Notes under the pieces: generated by a model
Database searches by the model: none
What the model was told of the DNA's origin: nothing
The model's input: the letters and a program-made list of their open reading frames with translations, nothing else
Part shown: positions 31,148 through 42,561 of the stretch, piece by piece
Layout of the letters: each line of letters starts with the position of its first letter
Position numbering within the stretch: position 1 is the first letter of the stretch
Program-made: the position numbers and the translations under genes
From: Nitrososphaerota archaeon
GTDB lineage: Archaea; Thermoproteota; Nitrososphaeria_A; Caldarchaeales; Calditenuaceae
Direction of reading: 5' to 3'
DNA: 64,000 nucleotides
NCBI GenBank assembly: GCA_041641295.1
Contig: JBEPYO010000001.1
Location: 576,001-640,000 of the forward strand

Positions 31148-31540
31148 GTACCCCCGGACTATATATGTGCCTATGCCCTATACCCGCGGAGCCCCCAACA
31201 CCCACACGTCTAAGCTAAATGTGGCTTCGAAGAATCTCTTGGAAACGAGGTTGCTGGAGACACCACTGCTAAACCTTCCCCCACCCATAGTATAATTTCG
31301 AGACCCTTACATTAGTTTAGGTGTCTCAAAGCTTATACGTGGGAGAGTATAAAGCGTGTTACATTAGTGTGTGGTAGGTGTTAACAGCTGACAATAGAGC
31401 AGATAAATACTTGGGAATATGGTGCTAGGCTCATAATAGATGGTGGAATTCCGTACTCCCTACCAGGCAAGGCTGCTGGGCTGTCGAGAGAGGTTGGAAG
31501 AAGTGATCAACGACTATCACCTGAGCTGAAGGATAAGCTT

Positions 31541-32701
31541 ATGGAAGCTCTGGAGATTGGGATCCGGAGCGGATTTAGCTATCATAATGTCTGGAGGATG
31601 CTGCGTGGTAGTGGAGTAGAAGTATCGAGGTCTACTGTCAGGAGATATTACTACAAGAGATTTCCTGAGAGGTTGGGGAAGAGAGGGCCGTGCCTCGACA
31701 GGTCTATTAGGATTAAGGTTTTCGGCGAGGTCAAAAGGCTGCGGGGATTGGGACATTCGTACAACAAGATCATAAGGGAGATAGAAGAGGTGTACGGAGT
31801 CCGGCTAAGCAAGTCGCAGGTCAGTGAGTGGTTGAGAGGGATACATAACCCATTCAATGGGTGTAGGATACCGTCCATAGACTTCCTAGAGAAGACCCCA
31901 GAACTCGCATACGTTATAGGGGTTGTCTCTGGCGACGGATGGGCTGTTAGAAAAAGAAAAGGCGATGCTAGGATAGGGGGCATGGTCAAAGACAGGGAGT
32001 TCATAGAAGAATTCTCGAGATGCTTGGGACAGGTTCTTAATAGGTATCCGCCGAAGCCTGCACCAATAGGAAACGGGTTCTTCCGAGTAATTGTTCAATC
32101 AAAGGCTCTCTACGACCTGCTTCGGAAGCCTATCGACATAGAGGTGATAAGACCATTCGTGGAGCATTGTGAAGAGTGTATGAAGAGCTTTTTGAGAGGA
32201 TTCTTCGACAGCGAAGGCTCAGTAAGTAGTTATGGCTCTATTACATGCGTCAACACTGACGAAAGACTCATCAACTATGTTAAGATGCTTCTAAATAATC
32301 TAGGCATCAAAACAACTGGGCCACATCTTCAGATGAAGAGAGGAACACCATTCTTCAGCAAGAAGAGGGGCAAGACCTACCGGACAAGAAAGGACGCCTA
32401 TAGCCTCTACATCAGGACATGCAGCAGGCTAAAATTCTACGAGCTAGTAGGCTTCACAATCAAGAAAAGGCAGCAAAGATTAGAAGAATACCTGAGGAGA
32501 CTAGGACGCCTAAACATGCCACCCAGCCAAACCTCCCCCCAAACACTATCCTCAACTCCCATCTCAACCTCCCACTCACAATATAGAATATCCGGAATGG
32601 CCGCGGGTGGGACTCGAACCCACGATCGCCGGGTCCACAGCCCGGAGTGTTACCAGCTACACCACCGCGGCCACCGCTACGAGTTCGCAGATTTCAGGTA
32701 A
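31541..32701 (+). CDS. Free-standing double-motif LAGLIDADG endonuclease with two N-terminal HTH-like repeats (copy 1)
   Basis: LAYVIGVVSGDG and FLRGFFDSEG motifs; no intein or host protein; frame runs on antisense through tRNA-His. Confidence 0.85.
   Translation: MEALEIGIRSGFSYHNVWRMLRGSGVEVSRSTVRRYYYKRFPERLGKRGPCLDRSIRIKVFGEVKRLRGLGHSYNKIIREIEEVYGVRLSKSQVSEWLRGIHNPFNGCRIPSIDFLEKTPELAYVIGVVSGDGWAVRKRKGDARIGGMVKDREFIEEFSRCLGQVLNRYPPKPAPIGNGFFRVIVQSKALYDLLRKPIDIEVIRPFVEHCEECMKSFLRGFFDSEGSVSSYGSITCVNTDERLINYVKMLLNNLGIKTTGPHLQMKRGTPFFSKKRGKTYRTRKDAYSLYIRTCSRLKFYELVGFTIKKRQQRLEEYLRRLGRLNMPPSQTSPQTLSSTPISTSHSQYRISGMAAGGTRTHDRRVHSPECYQLHHRGHRYEFADFR
32599..32672 (-). tRNA. tRNA-His(GTG) with encoded G-1
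   Basis: G-GCCGCGG/CCGCGGC-C acceptor; anticodon arm CCGGG-CTGTGGA-CCCGG. Confidence 0.95.
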
Positions 32702-32728
32702 TATATTTGAGGGTGCCGGGTCTTAGAT

Positions 32729-33049
32729 TTAGGCGTATTCCCGCCAAGTGTAGCCGCACTTAGTGCATCTGAAGAACTGTGTCATGGGCTCGTCGGCGGA
32801 TCTTGTCTGGACGCTCCACCAGTAGGCTTCCTGGTTTCCACACTGTGGGCACTGTACGTCGCCGGTCTTCGGCAGCACCTCCTTCTCAACATCATCGACT
32901 ATCACTGTTTTCCGCGGCTTCCTCTGTTTGTGGGTGATGATGTCGCCTGTAGGCTTCTTCACATACCCACACTTTCTACAGACCAGTACTACGCTGTTTG
33001 ACTTCCGCTCAGTGATTAGGACTGCGTCGCAGCGTGGGCAGAACTCCAT
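32729..33049 (-). CDS. tfs: Transcription factor S (TFS/RpoM)
   Basis: MEFCPRC...CRKC and CPQC...QTRSADEP...CTKC. Confidence 0.95.
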   Translation of the reverse strand: MEFCPRCDAVLITERKSNSVVLVCRKCGYVKKPTGDIITHKQRKPRKTVIVDDVEKEVLPKTGDVQCPQCGNQEAYWWSVQTRSADEPMTQFFRCTKCGYTWREYA

Positions 33050-33130
33050 GCCTCATCCTCCACCTCTTACACCGAGAGAATAGCACCGCACGGTTATTTG
33101 ATTAACCTTATTCAAGGCCACCCGCCTCTC

Positions 33131-33409
33131 CTATGATAGGAGCTGCTGTATCGACTCTCTCAACCCCTTCGCCCTTGAGGAGAGTTCGCGTACGCCCTTC
33201 AGCAATACGTCGGCGGCTTTATGCCCCTCGCGAGTCCTAAGTATGAACCTTAACGTCCCGATTAGAGGGTGTGTTAGGGTGACGCCGGCGTATTCAACCT
33301 CCTCGAAAGAGTTGAGAACCTCCTGTAGCGAATCAAGGATGCTGAAGTCTATGTCTTTCAGCTCTAGCTCTAAGACGTTTTCACCCCTCTCGATTACCTT
33401 GACCTCCAG
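33131..33409 (-). CDS. rpoL: RNA polymerase subunit L (Rpo11), apparent CTG start
   Basis: Read manually: (M)EVKVIERGENVLELEL...VEYAGVTLTHPLIG...; 92 aa; conserved csl4-rpoL-tfs order; absent from ORF track. Confidence 0.9.
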   Translation of the reverse strand: MEVKVIERGENVLELELKDIDFSILDSLQEVLNSFEEVEYAGVTLTHPLIGTLRFILRTREGHKAADVLLKGVRELSSRAKGLRESIQQLLS

Positions 33410-34014
33410 AGCAGACCACCACCCTCCGGTGAAAGCAACCCTCCAAACATCTTAAGGAGCGTATTAACCTTCCCGTAGTAGGGGACTATCGGCCTGTTAG
33501 TATATTTCCTCTTACACCTTGTGCAGAAGAGGGCTCTGCCACTCAGGGTCAGGGGGGCGCCGCATATATCGCAGAAAGCCTGGAAGACGCCAAGACCACG
33601 ACCCCTAACCGTGAGGCTGTATATGCCAGAGTAGTCCTCCCGGATCCGCGCTACAATTATGTCTCCCACGGTGAAGAGTGGTGTTTCGCGGCGTTGTAGG
33701 GCTGCCGCTGTCCAGTGGGTCTTGACCGGGTGGCCGGCTGCAGCGAGTATGTCGCAGATAACTAGCTTGTCTTGGACCTCTCTAACTTGGCAGAGGACGA
33801 GGTCTCCCGTCCTGATCTTTACCGAGGGCTTTGCGGCCTTGACAGAGACCGAGTGTCTCTTCAAGTCGTACTCCGCAACCCCAGCGACGGTTGCCACCAC
33901 GGCCCCGTCTTTTAGGACCTCTGCACCCTCACCCGGCATGAACTCCTCCACTACGCAGAGCTTATCGCCTGGAAGGACTAGCCTGCCTGATGCTTGAAAC
34001 CTCACTCCGAGCAT
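33394..34014 (-). CDS. csl4: Exosome subunit Csl4
   Basis: VLPGDKLCVVEEFMPGEG, S1 domain, C-terminal CDIC...CTRC Zn ribbon. Confidence 0.85.
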   Translation of the reverse strand: MLGVRFQASGRLVLPGDKLCVVEEFMPGEGAEVLKDGAVVATVAGVAEYDLKRHSVSVKAAKPSVKIRTGDLVLCQVREVQDKLVICDILAAAGHPVKTHWTAAALQRRETPLFTVGDIIVARIREDYSGIYSLTVRGRGLGVFQAFCDICGAPLTLSGRALFCTRCKRKYTNRPIVPYYGKVNTLLKMFGGLLSPEGGGLLWRSR

Positions 34015-34042
34015 AGACTGCTACGGGGAGTAGATAAAGTAG

Positions 34043-34666
34043 ATGTTCCATCATGAGGGGTGTGAGATGGGTGGGCGGGGGTTGATTGTGGCCATCGAAG
34101 GAATTGACGGCGCTGGGAAGACAACCCAGGCTAAGCGGCTTGTGAGATTTCTAAGGTCGAAGGGCGTGGCGGCAGAGTATACCTCGGAGCCGACCAGCTC
34201 CGCCCTCGGAAAGATGATTAAGTCCTACTTGAGGCGGGGAGGAGTGGACCCCCACCTGCTGGCCCTCCTCTTCGCAGCAGACAGAGTCTACCATCTAAAC
34301 AAAACTGTCAACCCATTGCTGGAGAGGGGCCGCGTAGTGGTTTGTGACAGATACCTTTACTCGTCCTATGCTTATCAGGGCGTGATGACCGGCCATCCCC
34401 TTTGGGTCAGGGAGATTAACAGGATGGCCCCACCACCAGATATCGCTGTCCTGCTGGACATCAGCGTTGAAGAAGCCCTTAGGAGGAAGAAGAGGAGGAT
34501 AAGGTTCGAGGACCCGGCCTTCCTAGAGGAGGTTAGGAGGGAGTATCTTAGACTGTGCGAGGCTGGGTTGATGGTAAAGGTAGACGCCGGAGGTGGGGTA
34601 GACGCAGTCTTCGTCGAGCTGGTGCGGGTTGTTTCGCCGCGGCTTGGCCTGAGTCCTAGCGCATGA
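34043..34666 (+). CDS. tmk: Thymidylate kinase
   Basis: IEGIDGAGKTTQ, LLFAADR, DRYLYSSYAYQG. Confidence 0.95.
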   Translation: MFHHEGCEMGGRGLIVAIEGIDGAGKTTQAKRLVRFLRSKGVAAEYTSEPTSSALGKMIKSYLRRGGVDPHLLALLFAADRVYHLNKTVNPLLERGRVVVCDRYLYSSYAYQGVMTGHPLWVREINRMAPPPDIAVLLDISVEEALRRKKRRIRFEDPAFLEEVRREYLRLCEAGLMVKVDAGGGVDAVFVELVRVVSPRLGLSPSA

Positions 34667-34683
34667 GGGATGCTCCGTGACTG

Positions 34684-35154
34684 TTATTCTTCACTGCTTC
34701 GCAGCATCTTCTTAATCTCCGAGGCCACCGATATGCATGCCTTCTCCACACTTTCAGAGAGGCCTGAGCCCTGCTCAAATCGCTCACCCTCTATGCCGTA
34801 GACAAGTATCCTAGCTGGGAGCATCCTGAGGGAGTCAGCCAAGCCGATAATCTCCGGCAAAGTCATGGTGTGTGTCGACCTCCACGCAGCCGTCTTTGAT
34901 AGTTTGTCCGTCGAGTCGAGCCTGTGGATGGTTCCTCCACCAGAGAATTTCTCCATGGCATCGACTATGACCAAGAGGTCTATGTCGCCTGTCAGGTGGT
35001 CTAGAAGCTCGGTGAGCGTCTGAAGCCTGATAACCTCTGCACCAGCCTCTCCCGAGAGCAGGTCGGCGACCCTATGCCCAGCCCCATCATCACCCCTAAA
35101 CGTGTTGCCGATACACGCCACCATTACGCGTCTTCTGCGGCTACTCTTCCTCAA
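34684..35154 (-). CDS. Hydrogenase maturation protease
   Basis: [17 protein letters not shown] motifs; last gene of the hydrogenase operon. Confidence 0.9.
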
Positions 35155-36436
35155 TCTCCAGCTTTAGGAAGTGTGTCGCACAGGAGATGCATGGGTCGTA
35201 GTTTCTTACCGCCTGCTCGAACCGCCAGACTGCCTGGCTACGTGGGAGCCTCACTATCTCGGGGGCTAGGGCCCGGAGGTCCTCCTCAATCCTCTTCTGG
35301 TTCTGGGCTGTGGGGGGCACTATCTTGGCTGAGAGTATCCGGCCCTCGCCATCCACGTCGTATCTGTGGTAGAGTATGCCTCTCGGAGCCTCAGTGCATC
35401 CGCAACCTCTCCCAGCTCTGACCTGCGGCTCAACCCTAGGACTCGACGGCTCAACATATTCGTCGATAATCCTGAGAGCCTCCTCAAAGGAGTAGTATGT
35501 CTCAGCAACTCGCGCGATTATGCTCTTGAACGGGTTCCTGCAAGGTGTCTTAAAGCCGATTCTCCTTAAGGCCCCTTTTGTGCGGTCGTGGAGCTTGTCA
35601 TAGTTAAGGTTGATTCTGGAGAGGGGGCCGACCATGTATGAGCCCCTGCCGACTATGTAGGAGTGTAGCGCATTGGAGTGTGGGACCTGCTCCTCCGCAA
35701 AATAGTCCTCGTACTGGTCAACATCAATGTCCAATCCCTTATTCGACACAATCCTTCCCTCGTTCATCGGATACTCTTCTGGGTGTCTGAGGGAGACGAA
35801 CTCGTAGTCCTGCTCAAAAGCAGGGAACTCTAGGTCCGCAACCCACTCCAGCAGGTCTTCAACAGTCGCCATGTTTTCTACTAGTCGCTCCCTCAGCTCC
35901 ATTAGCTCGCGCTTAGAAGGCACGCGGTAGAACCCACCTACGCATGCTGAGACAGGGTGAATCTCCCGGCCACCCAGCAGCGAGACTATATCATTTCCCA
36001 GCTTCTTCACCTTGAGGGCATTCTTCACTACTCTGGGGTGTTTCTTAGCCATCTTAATTGCGTCGTCGTATCCTAGGAAGTCGGGTGCGTGGAGGAGGAA
36101 GGCGTGGAGCATGTGGCTCTCTATCCACTCACCACAGTAGTAAAGCCTCCTCAGACTCCTCACCGACGGGGCTATGGTTACGCCGAAGAGCCTTTCAAAA
36201 GCATGCACCGAGCTCATCTGATAAGCCACAGGGCAAATCCCGCAGATCCTAGCAGTTATATCTGGGGCGTCATAGTACATCCGGCCCACTAGCAGTGCTT
36301 CGAAGAGCCTCGGAGGCTCGAATATCCTGAACTTGACGTCCACCACCTCGCGGCCTCTAAGCTTGATGTAGAGCGCGCCCTCGCCCTCAACCCTGGCTAG
36401 GTAGTCCACACGGTATTCCTTCTCCCTAGCAGTCAA
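35141..36436 (-). CDS. hydA: Group 3b [NiFe]-hydrogenase large (alpha) subunit
   Basis: ARVEGEG, RICGIC (L1), DPCISCATH (L2) with short C-terminal extension. Confidence 0.95.
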
Positions 36437-37203
36437 GCCTCAGCCTCCACCTCCCTAAAGCCAGGCGCCCAAGCGTTGAAGAGTCTGAAGGCCATGACGA
36501 CTTCCTCCCGCCTCCTACCCAGCTCTATGAAACGCTTCATTAGTGACTTAGAGTTAAGCGACTCTTTAGGCCCGTAGCAGCCATAGCATCCCCTCCCATA
36601 GGCTGGGCAGATGGCCCCACAGCCTGCATGAGTCACTGGCCCGAGACATGGAACGCCCCGAGCCACCATTACACATGCCGTGCCCCTCAGCTTACACTCG
36701 ACACAGACGCTCTGGTTGGGAATGCTGGGCGCCCTCCCCGAGAGGTACGCCGAAATCACCTCGAGTAGCTGGTACTTGTTTATTGGGCAGCCCCGGAGTT
36801 CGAAGTCAACCGGCACGTGGTCTGAGATGGGGGTAGACTTGTCCAGCGTCTCGATGTATTCTGGCTTCGGATAGACGTATTTCATAAACTCGGCTGAGCC
36901 CCTCCAGTTCCTGAGGGCCTGTATCCCGCCTGCTGTCGCGCACGCGCCTATGGTTATGAGTACTCTGCAGTTCTTCCTGATCTCTTTGATGAGCTCGGCG
37001 TCGTGGGGGGTTGTGATGCTTCCCTCTACTAGGCCGATGTCATATGGGCCCTTAACTACTGCACGGCTTGCCTCCAAGAAGTACGCGATCTCGAATGTCT
37101 CGCCAATTGTTAGCAACTCCTCCTCCAAGTCGAGGATGCTTAGCTGGCAGCCATCACATGACGCGAATTTATAGACTGCAATCTTTGGCCTTCTCTTCGC
37201 CAT
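36433..37203 (-). CDS. hydD: Group 3b [NiFe]-hydrogenase small (delta) subunit
   Basis: [25 protein letters not shown]; start revised to MAKRR. Confidence 0.9.
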
Positions 37204-38060
37204 CACACCTCCCTCCGCCCGAAGAAGTTTGAGACTTCTGAGAGGCTGAAGACAGGCCCATCCTTGCAGACGAAGAACGGGCCGAACTGGCAGTGCCCAC
37301 ATATACCGACGCCACACTTCATATTCCTCTCCATAGAGATGAAAATCCTCTCATCTGGAAGCCCCTGATTCTTCAACTCCTGCACGGTAAACCTCATCAT
37401 TATCTCAGGGCCGCAGACGTATGCATAGGTGTTGTTTGGCTCGAGCCTCAAGTATCTGAACAGTGTTGTGACTACGCCTATGTATCCGCGCCACTTCTCA
37501 TCCCCTCTATCTACAGTGACGAGTAGCTGGGTGTCCAGCCTGCTCCTCCAGACACGCAGTTCTTTCTTATAGAGCAGGTCGGCTGGCGTGCGGGCCCCAT
37601 AGAGAACATAGAGCTTCCCATACTTCTCCCTGTTTCTTATTATGTGTTGTATTGCCGGTCTTAGGGGTGCTAAACCTATTCCACCCCCAACAATAATTAC
37701 GTCCTGACCCTCAGCCTCTCTGAGCGGCCACCCCCTACCGAAGGGCCCCCTCAACCCCACGCTCGAACCTATCCGCGCCGTCGTCAAGGCCTTGGTCACA
37801 GGCCCCACCGCCCTCACGGTATGCTCCAGTGTCTGCCCGTTGGAGGAGGCTCCGCTTATGGAGATGGGGACCTCGCCCACGCCATAGGCGTAGAGCATGT
37901 TGAACTGGCCGGGGCTGAAAGCTATCTCGCCACGCCTGAGCGGACGAAGCCTAATGGTGTACGTGTCAGGCGTCTCTTTATTCCGTCCAACCAATTGGCA
38001 CCAATCAATCCTGAACGGCTCTAGAGCGGTGGCCGCTCCGAGACTCTGCTCAGTCATCAC
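37203..38060 (-). CDS. hydG: Group 3b hydrogenase gamma subunit (FAD/NAD(P)-binding, 2Fe-2S)
   Basis: [33 protein letters not shown]...CKDGPVF. Confidence 0.9.
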
Positions 38061-38542
38061 ACCGCACCAGTCCTCGGCTCACCGTAGATATCCGCGAGAC
38101 GCAGCCTAGCAGCCCTAAGCCTGTCAGCGACAACCATCACTATGCGCCGGTAGACCTCGTAGCCGAATTCGATGTCGCTCTCCATCATCCGCAACATTTT
38201 CTCACTGTCGATCGAGATCGCCATCGTGTTCTCAACGGCTACCGCGCCGGCGGTCTTCTTGAAGGGCTCTATGAGTGAGGACCAGCCCAGAACCTCCCCG
38301 CTGCCAATGGTCTCGAACCTGAACTCACCCCGCGGCGGAATATTGAAGTAAAGAGCTACAAGGCCATAGACTATCAGGTACAGTTTTTTATGCACTTCTC
38401 CCTCGCTGAATATCCGCTGCCCCGCTGTGAACCGAACAATGCTAGCGATTGATGCGAGCTCCTTGACCTTCTCCGCCCGCATGCCCTTGGTGAAGGGGTG
38501 GTCGCTCAGCAGTGTTAAGAGCTCGACCTGCTGGCTACTCAT
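38057..38542 (-). CDS. Cyclic nucleotide-binding (Crp-type) domain protein without HTH
   Basis: [26 protein letters not shown]; 161 aa. Confidence 0.8.
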
Positions 38543-39675
38543 GTCGCACTCACCTCCAGCACCCTCTGCCTAATCTTCGCCGCCTCCTCCGTAATATCTA
38601 TCCCCACTGGGCACCAAGTGATGCACCTGCCACAGCCCACACAGCCCATGACGCCGAACTGGTCAATCCACGTCGCGAGCTTGTGTGTAAACCACTGACG
38701 ATACCTGCTCATCCTACTAGACCTGATGGGGCCTCCGTGGATATAGGAGAAGTCGGCATTGAAGCATGAGTCCCATCTCCTCCAACGCTCAGCAACATTG
38801 CCCGAAAGAGTTGTAACCTCCTCAACAGTCGTGCAGAAGCATGTGGGGCAGACAAGTGTACAGTTAGCGCATGCGAGACACCTCTCAGCAACCTCTGCGT
38901 AGACCGGGCTCTCGAGGTTTTTGTACAACAAGTCCTTCAGACCGTTCACGTCCAGACCCTTCCTAAACAATGTTCGAGCCCTCTCAATCCTCGCAGCGGC
39001 CTCTGAGACTTCCTCGTCAGTCGCCCTCCGCGCACCGATACGCTCTAGGAGGCTCTTGCCAGCACTCGAACCCGCCTTAGCTACGAAGTAGTGTACACCA
39101 TCGCCCACTACCTCAGTGAGGCCTATATCGTAGCCCGACCCCGCCTCAGGCCCCGTGCCGACGGATAGGCAGAAGCAGTTCTCACCCGGCTCGGTACAGT
39201 TGACCGCAACTATGAAGACCTCGCGCCTCATTGCCGAGTAGACTGGGTCCACGTATGGGCCGCCCAGCAACACCTTGTCTAGGACCGAGATGGCGGCGAG
39301 CTCACACCCCCTAACCCCTATGAAGGCCAGCTTCTTCCCCAACACGTTGTTGGGGGTGACTTCACCTTTTCTCGAAACTGTGAAGAGTTTGACGCGGGGT
39401 GGATATAGAAACCTCTTCCACGAGTGTGGGCCTACTACGAAGCCGAAGAACGCCTTATCACCTCTCTCCTCTAGCCTGTAGTATCCTGGCCCCTGCCTAT
39501 CCCTCAGCCCCACTGGTAGCTGAGAGGCTGACTCAATCTCATCGTACACTATGGCACCCTCCCTGACTACTGGCCCAATAACAGAGTATCCAAGCCCTCG
39601 AAGAGCTGTGATTAGCTCGCCGAGAAGCGGGGGGTCGAGAAGATAATGATCGCTTTGATCTCTAAGTTCCCCCAT
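38539..39675 (-). CDS. hydB: Group 3b hydrogenase beta subunit (4Fe-4S)
   Basis: [32 protein letters not shown]. Confidence 0.9.
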
Positions 39676-39718
39676 CACATGTTTTAGAGTATTGAAAATC
39701 ATATAAATATATCGTGCC

Positions 39719-39750
39719 TTCATGCTGAAGGTCTATGCTTTCATGCTGAA
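39719..39750. promoter_or_regulatory. Tandem palindromic TTCA-N3-TGAA boxes upstream of the hydrogenase operon TATA box
   Basis: TTCATGCTGAA at 39719-39729 and 39740-39750 (21-bp period), beside an AT-rich TATA element at 39701-39712. Confidence 0.5.
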
Positions 39751-39788
39751 TATTATTGAGATATGTAGACAAGCATAAGGGTGTGGAA

Positions 39789-40568
39789 CTAGTCTACACT
39801 TAGGCCCGCATTCCTGAGAACGTGTTTGAGCGCATCAGCGAACCGCGTCGAAAGAAGCTCATCCCTCCCCAGCCTGCCGCTCCGCGAACTCAGCAACGGG
39901 TCAAAAGGAATCTCTCCTAGAAACGCAACGCCTTTAGCACGCGCCAGCTCCTTCGTAGGACTCTCAGGGTCGCTGGTGGACATGTTCTCTACGAGGCCGA
40001 TTATTTTTAGAGACGCCGACCTCAGAATATCTATGAGTCTTCCGGCCACGTTTACTGCCAAGTGCGTCGGCGTGGTAATCACGATTGCTCCGCCACTCCT
40101 CTTAACGTATTTCGAGATCGTGAGAAGTTCGTCCCCAGTCCCCGGAGGCATGTCTACTAACAGGTAGTCGAGCCTGCCGAAGGCTGTTAGGGCCAGCATC
40201 TCCTTCACGATCTCCTCCTTGGCCTGCCCTGTTAGGGGGAGGGGCCTACCCTTCGAGAAAAGGTCGATGGACATAACCTTCAACCCCTCCACCACCGGCG
40301 GGACCAGACCCTCTCCCGACTCGACAGGATTGTCCTCAACACCTAGTAGTAGGCATGAAGAGGGGCCATGCAGGTCGAGGTCGAGCAGCCCTGTCCTATT
40401 GGATGCCCGTGAGAGCATGAGGGCGGCGGTGGCGGCTATTAGGCTCTTCCCCACACCACCCTTCCCGCCCGTGACCAAGATTATTTGAGAGATTTTTCCT
40501 ATGTTCTCCTCGATGAGGGAGTCTCTGTAGTCGAGCCGGCCCCCACTATCCCTCGACGCATACGACAT
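39789..40568 (-). CDS. Mrp/NBP35 family P-loop ATPase
   Basis: GGKGGVGKS, DLDLHGPS, DMPPGTGD, ENM. Confidence 0.9.
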   Translation of the reverse strand: MSYASRDSGGRLDYRDSLIEENIGKISQIILVTGGKGGVGKSLIAATAALMLSRASNRTGLLDLDLHGPSSCLLLGVEDNPVESGEGLVPPVVEGLKVMSIDLFSKGRPLPLTGQAKEEIVKEMLALTAFGRLDYLLVDMPPGTGDELLTISKYVKRSGGAIVITTPTHLAVNVAGRLIDILRSASLKIIGLVENMSTSDPESPTKELARAKGVAFLGEIPFDPLLSSRSGRLGRDELLSTRFADALKHVLRNAGLSVD

Positions 40569-40953
40569 CTCTCACACTCACACCCCGACCCGAGACAATC
40601 CTCAAGTCTAGGCTTCCACACCACTTGCAGGCCGCATATGACGCTATCAGATCTGGGAGAAAATGTATCATCTCCCTCTCCTCCTCGCTGAGACCAGAGA
40701 TGGCCTCGCCGAAAGTCATAGTGTGGCCGCATGAGCCGCAGCTAATCATAGCAGGCTCAATCTCGATGGAGAACTCTGCCCCCTTGACCGCGCTGGCCGC
40801 GATAAGCCTCTCCAAAGCCTCACGAAGCACACTTGTGTCGAGCATACTCAGCTCACCGACCAAGACCCTAAAGCTCCTGACACCACAGCCAGACTTTAAC
40901 GAAAAGTCTCTAACCGACTCGACAACACCCCTCGCGATCGCATACTCATGCAT
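40546..40953 (-). CDS. hypA: Hydrogenase nickel metallochaperone HypA
   Basis: MHE start, CGSC...CKWC, archaeal EMIHFLPD insertion, SGRGV. Confidence 0.95.
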   Translation of the reverse strand: MHEYAIARGVVESVRDFSLKSGCGVRSFRVLVGELSMLDTSVLREALERLIAASAVKGAEFSIEIEPAMISCGSCGHTMTFGEAISGLSEEEREMIHFLPDLIASYAACKWCGSLDLRIVSGRGVSVRDVVCVEG

Positions 40954-41265
40954 ATCTCTTAAACAACTACACTAACCAACCCATAACCCTTATCCCGGAT
41001 TTTCAATCCTAACAGTCCAAGGACATCATAGTTTGTTCTTGGACTATTTGTGAATGAGCGATCACTAAAGTATCCATATCCTGTGAATTTAGCTTCTATT
41101 GTGGCCTATGTGAATGCCTCTGGATTGACTGATCCTCCTCCTTGACTGATAGGCCTTTAGATTGGACGTGAGTGACTTATTGGAAATTTAACAATCTTAA
41201 ACCATAATATACTTTCAGCGAAGTCTCTTAAGAGTTATAAAGCCCCCATACTTGCTATTCTAGTC

Positions 41266-42426
41266 ATGTCTGGAGAGAGCTGCCCACGCGTAGCGGAGCC
41301 TGTAGCAGGGCAGGGAACAGGAGGACTAAATCCCGGTCTTCTCAACGAGCCCGAGGACCAAACAGGGAAAGGATTAGGAAGAGTCCGGCAGAGAATGACA
41401 CCGGAGGAAAAGAAGAAGCTCATGGATGTGCTGAAGAGGGAGGCTCTGAGAGGGCTAGGATACGTGAGAATATGGCGGATGTTAAGGAAGGATGGGGTAA
41501 ATGTATCGAGGCGGACCGTAGAATACTGGTATCGCAAGTTTTTTCCAGAGAGATTGGGGAGAAGGGGAAAATACCTTCCACGCGAATTGAGGATAACGCT
41601 GTACGAGGAAGTCCTGAGGCTGAGGAGGCAGGGATTAGGTTACAAGAAGATTAGGCGGAGGATTAAAGAATTATATGATATCACGCTTGCACCCGCGGTA
41701 ATTGTTGATTGGTGTAGAGGAATCCATACACCATATGGCGGAATACGAATTCCTACAGTAGACTACCTGAAGCCATCCCCAGAGCTAGCTTATGTCATAG
41801 GTGTTGTGTGCGGGGATGGATCAGCTGTTAAAACAAGGGGGAGAAGCGGTGAATATGTTATCGGATCTCAAGTTAAGGATCGAGAGTTTAGCGAGAGATT
41901 CGCAGAATGCCTCGGTCGAATACTGAATAGGAGCCCGCCAACGCCGATACTCGTTAGAGGTAAGTTTCAGGTTTGTGTAAGATCGAGAACTCTTTACCAA
42001 CTTCTCCGAAAACCAATCGACATAAACAGGATAAAGAATTTCACGGAGCATTGTGAAGACTGCATGAGAAGTTTCCTAAAAGGCTTCTTCGATAGCGAAG
42101 GATCAGTAAGTAAGGAGGGGGAAATTCGCTGTGACAACTCAGACAAACAACTCCTAAACTATGTCAAGACCCTCCTGAATCGTTTATGCATCGATGTAAC
42201 AGGGCCGCACTTAGGTGTAAAGAAAGATACGCCCATCTTTAATAAGGATATGCAGAGAATATACATGAGAAAGAAAGAAGTATATTATCTCAATATCAGG
42301 GCTCCATATAGGCTAAAGTATTACGAGCTTGTTGGATTCTCTATTCGAAAGAAACAACAACGAATGGAAAACTATTTCAGGAGAAGAGGACTACTGGGGG
42401 GTCGCCTACCAGACCACCCCCTATAG
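41266..42426 (+). CDS. Free-standing double-motif LAGLIDADG endonuclease with two N-terminal HTH-like repeats (copy 2)
   Basis: LAYVIGVVCGDG and FLKGFFDSEG; colinear paralog of 31541-32701; stops 43 bp from the tRNA-Arg 3' end. Confidence 0.85.
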   Translation: MSGESCPRVAEPVAGQGTGGLNPGLLNEPEDQTGKGLGRVRQRMTPEEKKKLMDVLKREALRGLGYVRIWRMLRKDGVNVSRRTVEYWYRKFFPERLGRRGKYLPRELRITLYEEVLRLRRQGLGYKKIRRRIKELYDITLAPAVIVDWCRGIHTPYGGIRIPTVDYLKPSPELAYVIGVVCGDGSAVKTRGRSGEYVIGSQVKDREFSERFAECLGRILNRSPPTPILVRGKFQVCVRSRTLYQLLRKPIDINRIKNFTEHCEDCMRSFLKGFFDSEGSVSKEGEIRCDNSDKQLLNYVKTLLNRLCIDVTGPHLGVKKDTPIFNKDMQRIYMRKKEVYYLNIRAPYRLKYYELVGFSIRKKQQRMENYFRRRGLLGGRLPDHPL

Positions 42427-42469
42427 TCTCTTTTCACCCCAATCTTGCTGGTGTCTCATTATATAAATG

Positions 42470-42561
42470 CGGGCCCGGTGGGACTCGAACCCACGGTTTC
42501 CGCGCCTTTAACGCTCTGCGGCTTAGGAGGCCGCCGCCTTATCCTTCTAGGCCACGGGCCC
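42470..42561 (-). tRNA. tRNA-Arg(CCT) with 18-nt non-canonical intron at 45/46 (42498-42515)
   Basis: Anticodon arm GCGGC-CTCCTAA-GCCGC; BHB CCGC-AG^A-GC...GC-GCGG-AA^A-C; splicing restores variable loop AGACC. Confidence 0.9.

Follow-up and report, generated by a model that had tools for sequence, protein, structure and literature searches.

The DNA considered here (the window) is a stretch of 64,000 nucleotides from a Nitrososphaerota archaeon of the family Calditenuaceae, in the order Caldarchaeales (formerly Aigarchaeota): positions 576,001 to 640,000, forward strand, of contig JBEPYO010000001.1 in GenBank assembly GCA_041641295.1. It carries two free-standing genes for LAGLIDADG endonucleases, each in a small inserted cassette that ends exactly at the 3' end of a transfer RNA (tRNA) gene. 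Judged from genome sequences and a structural model, the two belong to a homing endonuclease family that behaves like a transposable cassette specific for tRNA gene ends; the predicted enzyme itself is, by fold, motifs, and catalytic residues, of the known I-DmoI type.

The Cassettes and Their Boundaries

Both genes lie on the forward strand and encode 386 amino acids (aa), with two helix-turn-helix (HTH) modules ahead of the LAGLIDADG core. Copy 1 (31541..32701; protein P0001) was delimited with the list of open reading frames (ORFs), Pfam, and the alignment of the paralogs, and copy 2 (41266..42426; P0002) with the ORF list, Pfam, and AlphaFold; the database gene call for copy 2 (P0003) starts at Met44 of P0002. 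A previous reading of the window, made from the sequence alone, had taken the pair for paralogs that are roughly half identical, and they do align with 55% identity (176/320 residues, E 2e-121). That reading also had each gene convergent with a tRNA gene, and ARAGORN and Rfam agree. The tRNA-His(GTG) gene occupies 32599..32672 on the reverse strand (ARAGORN 32598-32672; Rfam 32599-32671, 66.8 bits), and the tRNA-Arg(CCT) gene occupies 42470..42561, also in reverse (ARAGORN 42469-42561; Rfam 42470-42561, 59.5 bits). The latter, at 92-93 nt, exceeds the standard tRNA length and possibly bears an intron.

Comparison with alleles that lack the insertion gives cassette 1 as 31222..32598 on the forward strand (1377 bp, its boundary ambiguous by ~1 nt), between the flank of a SIMPL/DUF541 gene and the tRNA-His 3' end, and cassette 2 as 40997..42469, likewise forward (1473 bp; empty alleles in G006:C19 and G004:C39, the handles denoting genome and contig), between the flank of a HypA gene and the tRNA-Arg(CCT) 3' end. 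Against these empty alleles, the right end of both cassettes touches the base complementary to the tRNA discriminator, and no target-site duplication is seen at the junctions of either.

The tail of cassette 1 (32501..32598, forward; from sequence reading and junction alignment) is a C-rich tract followed by an A/T-rich end, which on the tRNA strand is a T-rich stretch directly after the tRNA and which probably acts as the tRNA terminator. The sequence-only reading had recognized the C-rich tract correctly and had called it a linker between the conserved core and the tRNA; the tract belongs instead to the inserted cassette. Its estimate of a 300-400 bp leader suits cassette 1, in which 319 bp separate the left boundary from the first ATG, and is too long for cassette 2, which has 269 bp. 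Both leaders contain the sequence GAGT(T)ATAAAGC. As read from the sequence, a candidate archaeal TATA box with a putative promoter role, TATAAAG, lies at 31348..31354 (forward) in the leader of cassette 1, and cassette 2 has a candidate box, TTATAAAG, at 41235..41242 (forward), whose putative function is assigned on the grounds of archaeal promoter architecture. The latter lies 23 nt upstream of the ATG at 41266, a spacing that suggests a leaderless transcript.

Several familiar kinds of element can be set aside on this anatomy. The ORFs are intergenic and have their own starts, the cassettes lie beyond the tRNA, and matches to NCBIfam intein-host families cover the endonuclease part only, so that an intron- or intein-encoded enzyme is ruled out, in line with the sequence-only reading. 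That reading had likewise seen no integrase, transposase, or duplicated attachment (att) site, and none has emerged: the neighbors of the two cassettes include no integrase, transposase, or recombinase gene, the cassettes have neither terminal inverted repeats nor flanking direct repeats, and Rfam finds no tRNA-like remnant in their leaders at E values up to 10. An integrase island is excluded by the single-gene insertions and the housekeeping neighbors (SIMPL/DUF541, a TFS-like gene, an exosome subunit, thymidylate kinase, an Mrp/NUBPL ATPase, HypA, and GlmS), and an integrase-borne, tRNA-integrating element by the lack of a neighboring recombinase, a direct repeat, or a tRNA-like remnant at that same E limit. 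Similarly, an insertion sequence or DNA transposon is rejected on the missing terminal inverted repeats and junction duplication, with matches to transposase-type HTH domains below cut-offs.

Occupied and Empty tRNA Loci

The genome that contains the window (1.56 Mb, 48 predicted tRNAs) holds five full-length copies of the family and one fragment, all on the + strand. All five full-length copies are followed, 45-85 nt after the last aligned residue, by a convergent tRNA gene (His-GTG, Arg-CCT, Pro-CGG, Ile-GAT, and Arg-TCT). Rfam confirms the tRNA at each of these and finds none at the sixth, fragmentary copy. By a rough estimate, adjacency to a tRNA would be expected by chance at <1% per gene.

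The checks proposed in the sequence-only reading included a search for empty alleles and a count of the homologs that lie convergent with tRNA genes. Empty alleles were sought with flanking DNA in seven other genomes of the genus and exist at three of the five loci (His, Arg-CCT, and Pro-CGG), where the insertions measure 1.4-1.5 kb and hold a single gene. In G005, the left flank ...GCTAAATG is joined directly to GGCCGCGG... of tRNA-His. The same locus is empty in G006 and G002, with 32-42 nt between flank and tRNA, and in G003 a different cassette is present, together with a contig break. At tRNA-Arg(CCT), empty in G006:C19 and G004:C39, the left flank joins CGGGCCCGG... with 1 and 9 nt between, and the tRNA-Pro(CGG) locus is empty in G007, G004, and G003. 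The Ile and Arg-TCT loci yielded no clear empty allele among the seven congeneric genomes. One and the same site thus occurs both occupied and empty, as is characteristic of mobile genes for LAGLIDADG homing endonucleases.

Some of the loci hold other sequences in the place of a cassette. Immediately 3' of tRNA-His, G007 and G004 each have a ~1 kb gene that by eye resembles GNAT acetyltransferases (L040, G007:C1:7343-8417; L042, G004:C39:30568-31548), and the two genes are 78% identical. A different filler, of 1.8 kb, lies between the left flank and the tRNA-Arg(TCT) 3' end in G002 (L159, G002:C25:235254-237053); the single degraded family match of that genome is located elsewhere. In addition, tRNA-Pro(CGG) has a 28-nt intron in the occupied allele of the window's genome (L004 2639-2747), an intron that, judged by length, appears to be missing from the empty allele at G007:C5:1768-1806. 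The extra length of tRNA-Arg(CCT), possibly an intron, does not follow occupancy.

Linkage to tRNA Genes Across the Family

To count copies beyond the window's genome, loci from related genomes and named records were combined into a genome-collection set in which identical stretches were counted once, and a copy was held to be evaluable if it included the end of the C-terminal core and at least 150 nt downstream. This set has 96 unique evaluable copies (5 more were too short). ARAGORN calls a convergent tRNA within 200 nt in 46 of them, an antisense acceptor/T-arm motif alone is present in a further 11, one has a co-directional tRNA, and 38 have no tRNA; the motif detector has a background of 86 hits in 3000 random control windows. 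Metagenome contigs supply 54 more unique evaluable copies (4 short ones and 22 duplicates were dropped), with a convergent tRNA in 35, a co-directional one in 1, and none in 18. In the pooled set of 150 unique copies, a convergent tRNA is called within 200 nt for 81, and the total rises to 92 if the 11 with the acceptor/T-arm motif are added. Where a tRNA is called within that distance, its orientation is convergent in 81 of 83 copies. Please note that, with introns disallowed, ARAGORN overlooked the tRNA at the Pro-CGG copy, and that several others were missed even with introns allowed.

The distance from the end of the core to the tRNA clusters at 50-90 nt, the tRNAs represent >30 isoacceptor types, and 59 aligned junctions place the A/T-rich end of the cassette directly against the discriminator position. 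One genome, G001, is especially rich in cassettes. Merging its 59 protein matches by hand leaves at least 32 copies with a C-terminal end, of which at least 28 abut a complete convergent tRNA, 2 a tRNA 3' fragment only, and 2 none; conversely, at least 28 of the 49 tRNA matches in this genome carry a cassette or a remnant of one. The placement of homologs is therefore not random (5/5 in the window's genome, 92/150 elsewhere, and at least 28 of those 32 in G001), contrary to the random placement that the sequence-only reading had named as a refutation.

The two G001 copies without a tRNA belong to a sub-clade with another tail. Six of its loci (L073, L077, L111, L134, L195, and L198) have no tRNA downstream and end in a common tail near ...GTCTATGG, and this sub-clade may have switched to a non-tRNA target. 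In one named record (L087 1484-1602), a 5S ribosomal RNA (rRNA) gene lies convergent ~320 nt past the cassette, with an intron-bearing tRNA-like sequence between the two.

Spread Between tRNAs and Distribution

Closely related cassettes adjoin many different tRNA genes in related archaea of hot springs, and the family is thus not bound to one tRNA. Nine cassettes of one named metagenome-assembled genome (MAG) are 80-93% identical when aligned; five of them share the terminus ...AATAACTAATAT and the other four end in close variants. Termini of the ...AATAACTAATAT type are fused to the 3' ends of differing tRNAs (Ser, Pro, Asn, Met, Arg, Ala, and others). Similarly, a protein tree built from 48 intact copies has well-supported clades that unite cassettes at Thr/Ser/Pro, Thr/Ser, Asp/Val, and Val/Pro tRNAs. 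The 19 labeled rows of this tree have 14 tRNA labels and 16 label changes, a count that is set against its possible range of 13-18 and not against a shuffle test.

The two ends of the cassettes differ in constancy. Left ends vary even among close copies, whereas the tRNA-side junction is exact. One 5'-truncated and one internally deleted copy retain the tRNA junction, and beyond several copies the tRNA sequence consists of its last 17-25 nt only. The heterogeneous left ends, the truncated and the deleted copy with their junction kept, and the tRNA 3' fragments are consistent with one-sided copying, as far as the sequences can tell.

Among 41 genomes, the family has 0-43 matches per genome, with many copies interrupted by stop codons and many at contig ends. 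Across a phylum-wide sample of 401 genomes, a match occurs in 38 of 63 genomes from four families of the window's order versus 3 of 337 elsewhere, and these three are all weak. The named relatives are mostly Caldarchaeales (Geocrenenecus, Calditenuis, Wolframiiraptor, Caldarchaeum, and HR01/HR02), joined by a few MAGs of Nitrososphaerales/Nitrosopumilales and one of Bathyarchaeota. The best reading of this distribution is a selfish family, now or recently mobile, in one archaeal order. Non-random placement, empty alleles, and relatives at multiple tRNAs together uphold the proposal, first made from the sequence alone, of a homing cassette that spreads among tRNA loci.

One frame of the left end of cassette 1 (31222-31300) reads GFEESLGNEVAGDTTAKPSPTHS, which by eye resembles the family C-terminus plus the C-rich tail; by BLAST the resemblance to the C-terminus is not significant. 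In a test for remnants of older cassettes, the Pro-CGG leader gave weak matches (E 1.4-2.5) to "YLRRRGVL," again not significant. Two cassettes of one named MAG (L106 and L118) have two leader types in tandem. Together, the resemblance at 31222-31300 and the tandem leaders hint at insertion of new cassettes next to the tRNA, with older ones displaced outward.

The Predicted Enzyme

Both proteins match Pfam LAGLIDADG_3 above cut-off (E 4.3e-17 and 1.5e-13), and their matches to HTH_21, HTH_32, and HTH_33 fall below Pfam cut-offs. The two HTH-like repeats noticed in the sequence-only reading correspond, in the AlphaFold model of P0002, to two three-helix modules (helices 46-92 and 106-151), which are followed by a double LAGLIDADG core. 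The model was built from a 32-sequence family alignment and has a mean predicted local distance difference test (pLDDT) score of 83.8, with the LAGLIDADG core >90. Two LAGLIDADG motifs per chain in a pseudo-dimeric alpha-beta-beta-alpha-beta-beta-alpha core, as found with Pfam, AlphaFold, and Foldseek, place the family with the monomeric I-DmoI type.

Each motif closes with an acidic catalytic residue, as in LAGLIDADG homing endonucleases. The GDG and DSEG motifs, which the sequence-only reading had found intact in both proteins, are unchanged in 32/32 aligned family members and line up with D21 and E117 of I-DmoI in a profile search of solved structures. I-DmoI ranks first in that search (E 2.6e-9), and the top Foldseek matches of the model are all I-DmoI, with a template modeling (TM) score of 0.75 normalized to I-DmoI. 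The ratio of nonsynonymous to synonymous substitution rates (dN/dS) is 0.19-0.30 in all nine computable pairs of intact paralogs, the tenth pair being saturated; by this measure the intact copies are under purifying selection. Taken with the invariant catalytic residues and the modeled I-DmoI fold, the low dN/dS makes the enzyme look active.

Database names for the family proteins are "LAGLIDADG family homing endonuclease" or "intein-encoded DNA endonuclease-like protein." In copy 1, the conserved core ends near 32500, and the remainder of the ORF is an unconserved tail that crosses the full length of the tRNA-His gene in antisense. Tails such as GG(T/I)RT(H/L)D end many called family proteins (window 32501-32701; P0007, P0014, P0044, P0076, P0085, and P0087). 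As translations of the antisense tRNA acceptor/T-arm, these tails are a gene-calling artifact that itself reveals the adjacent tRNA.

Proposed Mechanism

We consider it probable, at about the level of two chances in three, that these are mobile, free-standing homing endonuclease cassettes that target a generic feature of tRNA 3' ends and hop among non-allelic tRNA genes. The unit is a small cassette of 1.0-1.5 kb, presumably autonomous, with a leader that would bear the promoter, one gene of the I-DmoI type, and a C-rich then A/T-rich tail, convergent with the tRNA and inserted directly after its discriminator. The encoded protein has one or two N-terminal HTH modules.

In the first step, the protein would bind the conserved acceptor/T-arm DNA of a tRNA gene free of a cassette, and the HTH modules may provide part of the recognition. 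Cassettes occur at so many tRNAs that the target must be a feature common to tRNA gene 3' ends. In the second step, the endonuclease would cut at or near the boundary between tRNA and flank of the unoccupied gene. The break would then be repaired from a tRNA locus that already bears a cassette, with the tRNA 3' segment as the sole shared homology arm, which would fix the tRNA-side junction to the nucleotide. The distal side would be joined without long homology, which would leave ragged left ends. Lastly, ordinary allelic homing would spread each occupied locus within the species. The sequence-only reading had named gene conversion as the route of spread; conversion operates between homologous alleles and would by itself be insufficient for non-allelic tRNAs. 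The T-rich stretch supplied by the A/T-rich cassette end probably keeps the tRNA functional and the insertion cheap for the host.

A number of observations weigh against this proposal, the first of them in the window's own genome. Its five copies are mutually 55-58% identical, which indicates old insertions rather than recent hops. Conserved residues (QRLSPELKDKL) precede the first ATG of copy 1, with no earlier in-frame ATG, GTG, or TTG when read by hand, and the N-terminus of this copy may therefore be damaged; from its sequence, the native start may be missing. The Arg-TCT copy has an in-frame TAG. Three near-identical DNA runs, which may be the source of this DNA, show only the occupied allele in their contigs, with no joints; a fourth run has parts of the flanks and tRNA only, with no contig joining across. 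No RNA run is listed as containing the locus, and these data are silent on both mobility and expression.

Other observations concern the insertion itself. Comparison with the empty alleles shows clean left junctions at the His and Arg-CCT loci, a result less to be expected of non-homologous joining. Near-identical enzymes adjoin very different acceptor stems and have in common the T-arm alone, 8-24 bp inside the tRNA; the differing stems imply a generic target, most plausibly the T-arm plus the acceptor end. Cleavage by a LAGLIDADG core normally falls inside the site that it recognizes, so that an exact cut at the boundary would demand an unusual binding geometry. A cut inside the tRNA with repair from another tRNA would instead convert the acceptor strand, and no such sign is seen at tRNA-His: its eight alleles show no pattern that divides occupied from empty and no conversion of the tRNA 3' part. 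Across the family, 56 of 150 unique copies (~37%) have no detectable tRNA downstream, and the sub-clade with a different conserved downstream motif means that tRNA targeting is not universal. It is important to remember that we infer cleavage, binding, and transposition by the family from its sequences.

Other Explanations

The strongest competitor, which we nevertheless regard as unlikely, would make the cassette a passenger that another enzyme (an integrase or the element described next) places at tRNA ends, with the LAGLIDADG protein having another role or none. A candidate carrier does exist: the same genus has a second multi-copy element, with an uncharacterized 260-aa ORF, whose insertions lie at the 5' part of tRNA genes, and a repeat present in the leaders of two cassettes recurs at a locus beside one copy of it. 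The region 3' of tRNAs is also variable in general, with the GNAT-like gene and other fillers at the same sites in some genomes. On the other hand, the endonuclease gene and the tail are the sole conserved content of the cassettes, and purifying selection acts on the gene, whose catalytic residues do not vary; no att-type tRNA repeat is found at the far end, and the 260-aa ORF element sits on the opposite side of the tRNA and leaves a tRNA 5' repeat.

That second element is worth describing. One copy, L047:3483-4265 (G006:C19), shares the strand of tRNA-Arg(CCT) and is located immediately 5' of it, with a ~20 nt copy of the tRNA 5' end 1.5 kb away. The window's genome has five copies (G000:C1:809233-810051, 1029007-1029810, 1093000-1093821, 1135599-1136375, and 1341335-1342099), and the 260-aa ORF has no Pfam match. 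The shared repeat is a hairpin-like, conserved non-coding stretch common to the Pro-CGG leader (G000:C1 ~886260-886500; L004 916-1153) and the Ile-GAT leader. It recurs at C1:1092251-1092487, beside a copy of the 260-aa ORF element, and has no Rfam match.

Survivor bias offers a different account of the same linkage, and a still less probable one. Here the enzyme would be blind to tRNA DNA, and cassettes would land widely and survive only in the harmless spot past a tRNA, or beside a strong terminator. The ~37% of copies away from a tRNA fit this account, and foreign DNA is known to gather at the flanks of tRNA genes, as the survey of thaumarchaeal integrated elements (PMC6563490) describes. 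Selection of this kind would accept any downstream position, yet 59 junctions are exact at the discriminator; moreover, near-identical cassettes, when aligned, share one terminus or close variants of it, and of the 83 copies that have a tRNA called within 200 nt, 81 are convergent with that tRNA.

A domesticated DNA-binding factor, inherited vertically with its tRNA and serving in the control of tRNA transcription or termination or in the guarding of att sites (an option that the sequence-only reading had kept in play), is the most improbable of the three and a poor fit, for although the five copies in the window's genome are old, mostly intact, and on one strand, and although WhiA, to which the fold also matches, is a precedent for LAGLIDADG plus HTH proteins that turn into regulators, the family is polymorphic for presence within one genus, varies from 0 to 43 matches per genome with many stop codons and pseudogenes, switches tRNAs on the tree, and keeps the catalytic residues that WhiA does not.

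Relation to Known Systems

Enzymes of the I-DmoI type have their genes in introns of rRNA or in inteins, and their homing is to a single allelic site. LAGLIDADG homing endonucleases of this kind make site-specific double-strand cuts in a long target, with 4-nt 3' overhangs. Like I-DmoI, I-Tsp061I, and PI-PfuI, the proteins described here have two LAGLIDADG motifs per chain, acidic residues at the GDG and xEG positions, and a thermophilic archaeal host. Unlike them, the cassette genes are free-standing, encode one or two extra N-terminal HTH modules, lie outside the target gene, and are found at many non-allelic tRNAs. The bacterial regulator WhiA has a C-terminal HTH and has lost its nuclease residues. 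It resembles the family in combining a LAGLIDADG scaffold with HTH, and is a weaker fold match (Foldseek E ~2e-5). A WhiA-like regulator is excluded by the N-terminal position of the HTH in the AlphaFold model, the retained catalytic residues, and a gene that is multi-copy and polymorphic, whereas WhiA is a single-copy, conserved regulator.

Free-standing endonuclease genes have been met among tRNA genes before. Phage T4 SegB, in the account given in PMC2330249, is likewise encoded by a free-standing, modular endonuclease gene among tRNA genes, and its intronless homing copies the gene together with its flanks. It differs in being a phage enzyme of the GIY-YIG type that acts on allelic regions of related phages. 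SegB is not known to have a nucleotide-exact tRNA junction or to spread to dozens of tRNA genes per genome. Archaeal integrase elements of the SSV and pNOB8 types, and the integrated mobile genetic elements of thaumarchaea as treated in the main text of PMC6563490, share the landing site at the tRNA 3' end and a tRNA that is kept functional. In contrast to them, the cassettes come without integrase or repeat, and their junction falls after the last tRNA base.

Closest in host is the 1.8 kb "a+b" insertion at tRNA-Thr of Ca. Caldiarchaeum subterraneum (Sugahara et al. 2012, PMC3293823), as that article describes it: a small, multi-copy, one-ORF element of the same archaeal group with population heterogeneity at the tRNA locus. 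It lies 5' of the tRNA, its 271-aa ORF has the orientation of the tRNA, and it leaves the tRNA 5' end duplicated; on this architecture, by description, the cassettes do not match it. By the same descriptive comparison, the architecture of the 260-aa ORF element does match it.

In the literature that we searched, LAGLIDADG cassettes at the 3' ends of archaeal tRNA genes are nowhere described. In the thaumarchaeal survey (PMC6563490), the terms "LAGLIDADG" and "homing endonuclease" are absent from the main text, and its supplements may hold tables.

Significance

In the usual understanding, a homing endonuclease copies itself into a single cognate allele. If one family lands at dozens of tRNA gene ends, it would show how a homing enzyme can become a transposition system for a whole class of targets, and how a LAGLIDADG core is redirected by additional DNA-binding modules. 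The fuller form of this idea we hold more tentatively, at slightly less than an even chance: that a LAGLIDADG lineage evolved into target-class transposition by reading a T-arm/acceptor feature of all tRNA genes (perhaps via the HTH modules), inserting after the discriminator, supplying a terminator, and filling more than half of the tRNA genes of a genome. If true, no earlier DNA element is known that relies on a homing endonuclease for targeting tRNA gene ends, and the family would be a prokaryotic, protein-guided counterpart both of the tRNA-targeted insertion of eukaryotic retroelements and of guide-RNA-directed transposons.

There are also practical consequences. In Caldarchaeales genomes, the cassettes explain one origin of assembly breaks and of wrongly called proteins, and they offer a natural panel of thermostable LAGLIDADG enzymes, with close sequences beside different targets, for studies of specificity. 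For the archaea themselves, they would represent a second, integrase-free traffic at tRNA loci, one that bears on why archaeal tRNA genes are so often disrupted.

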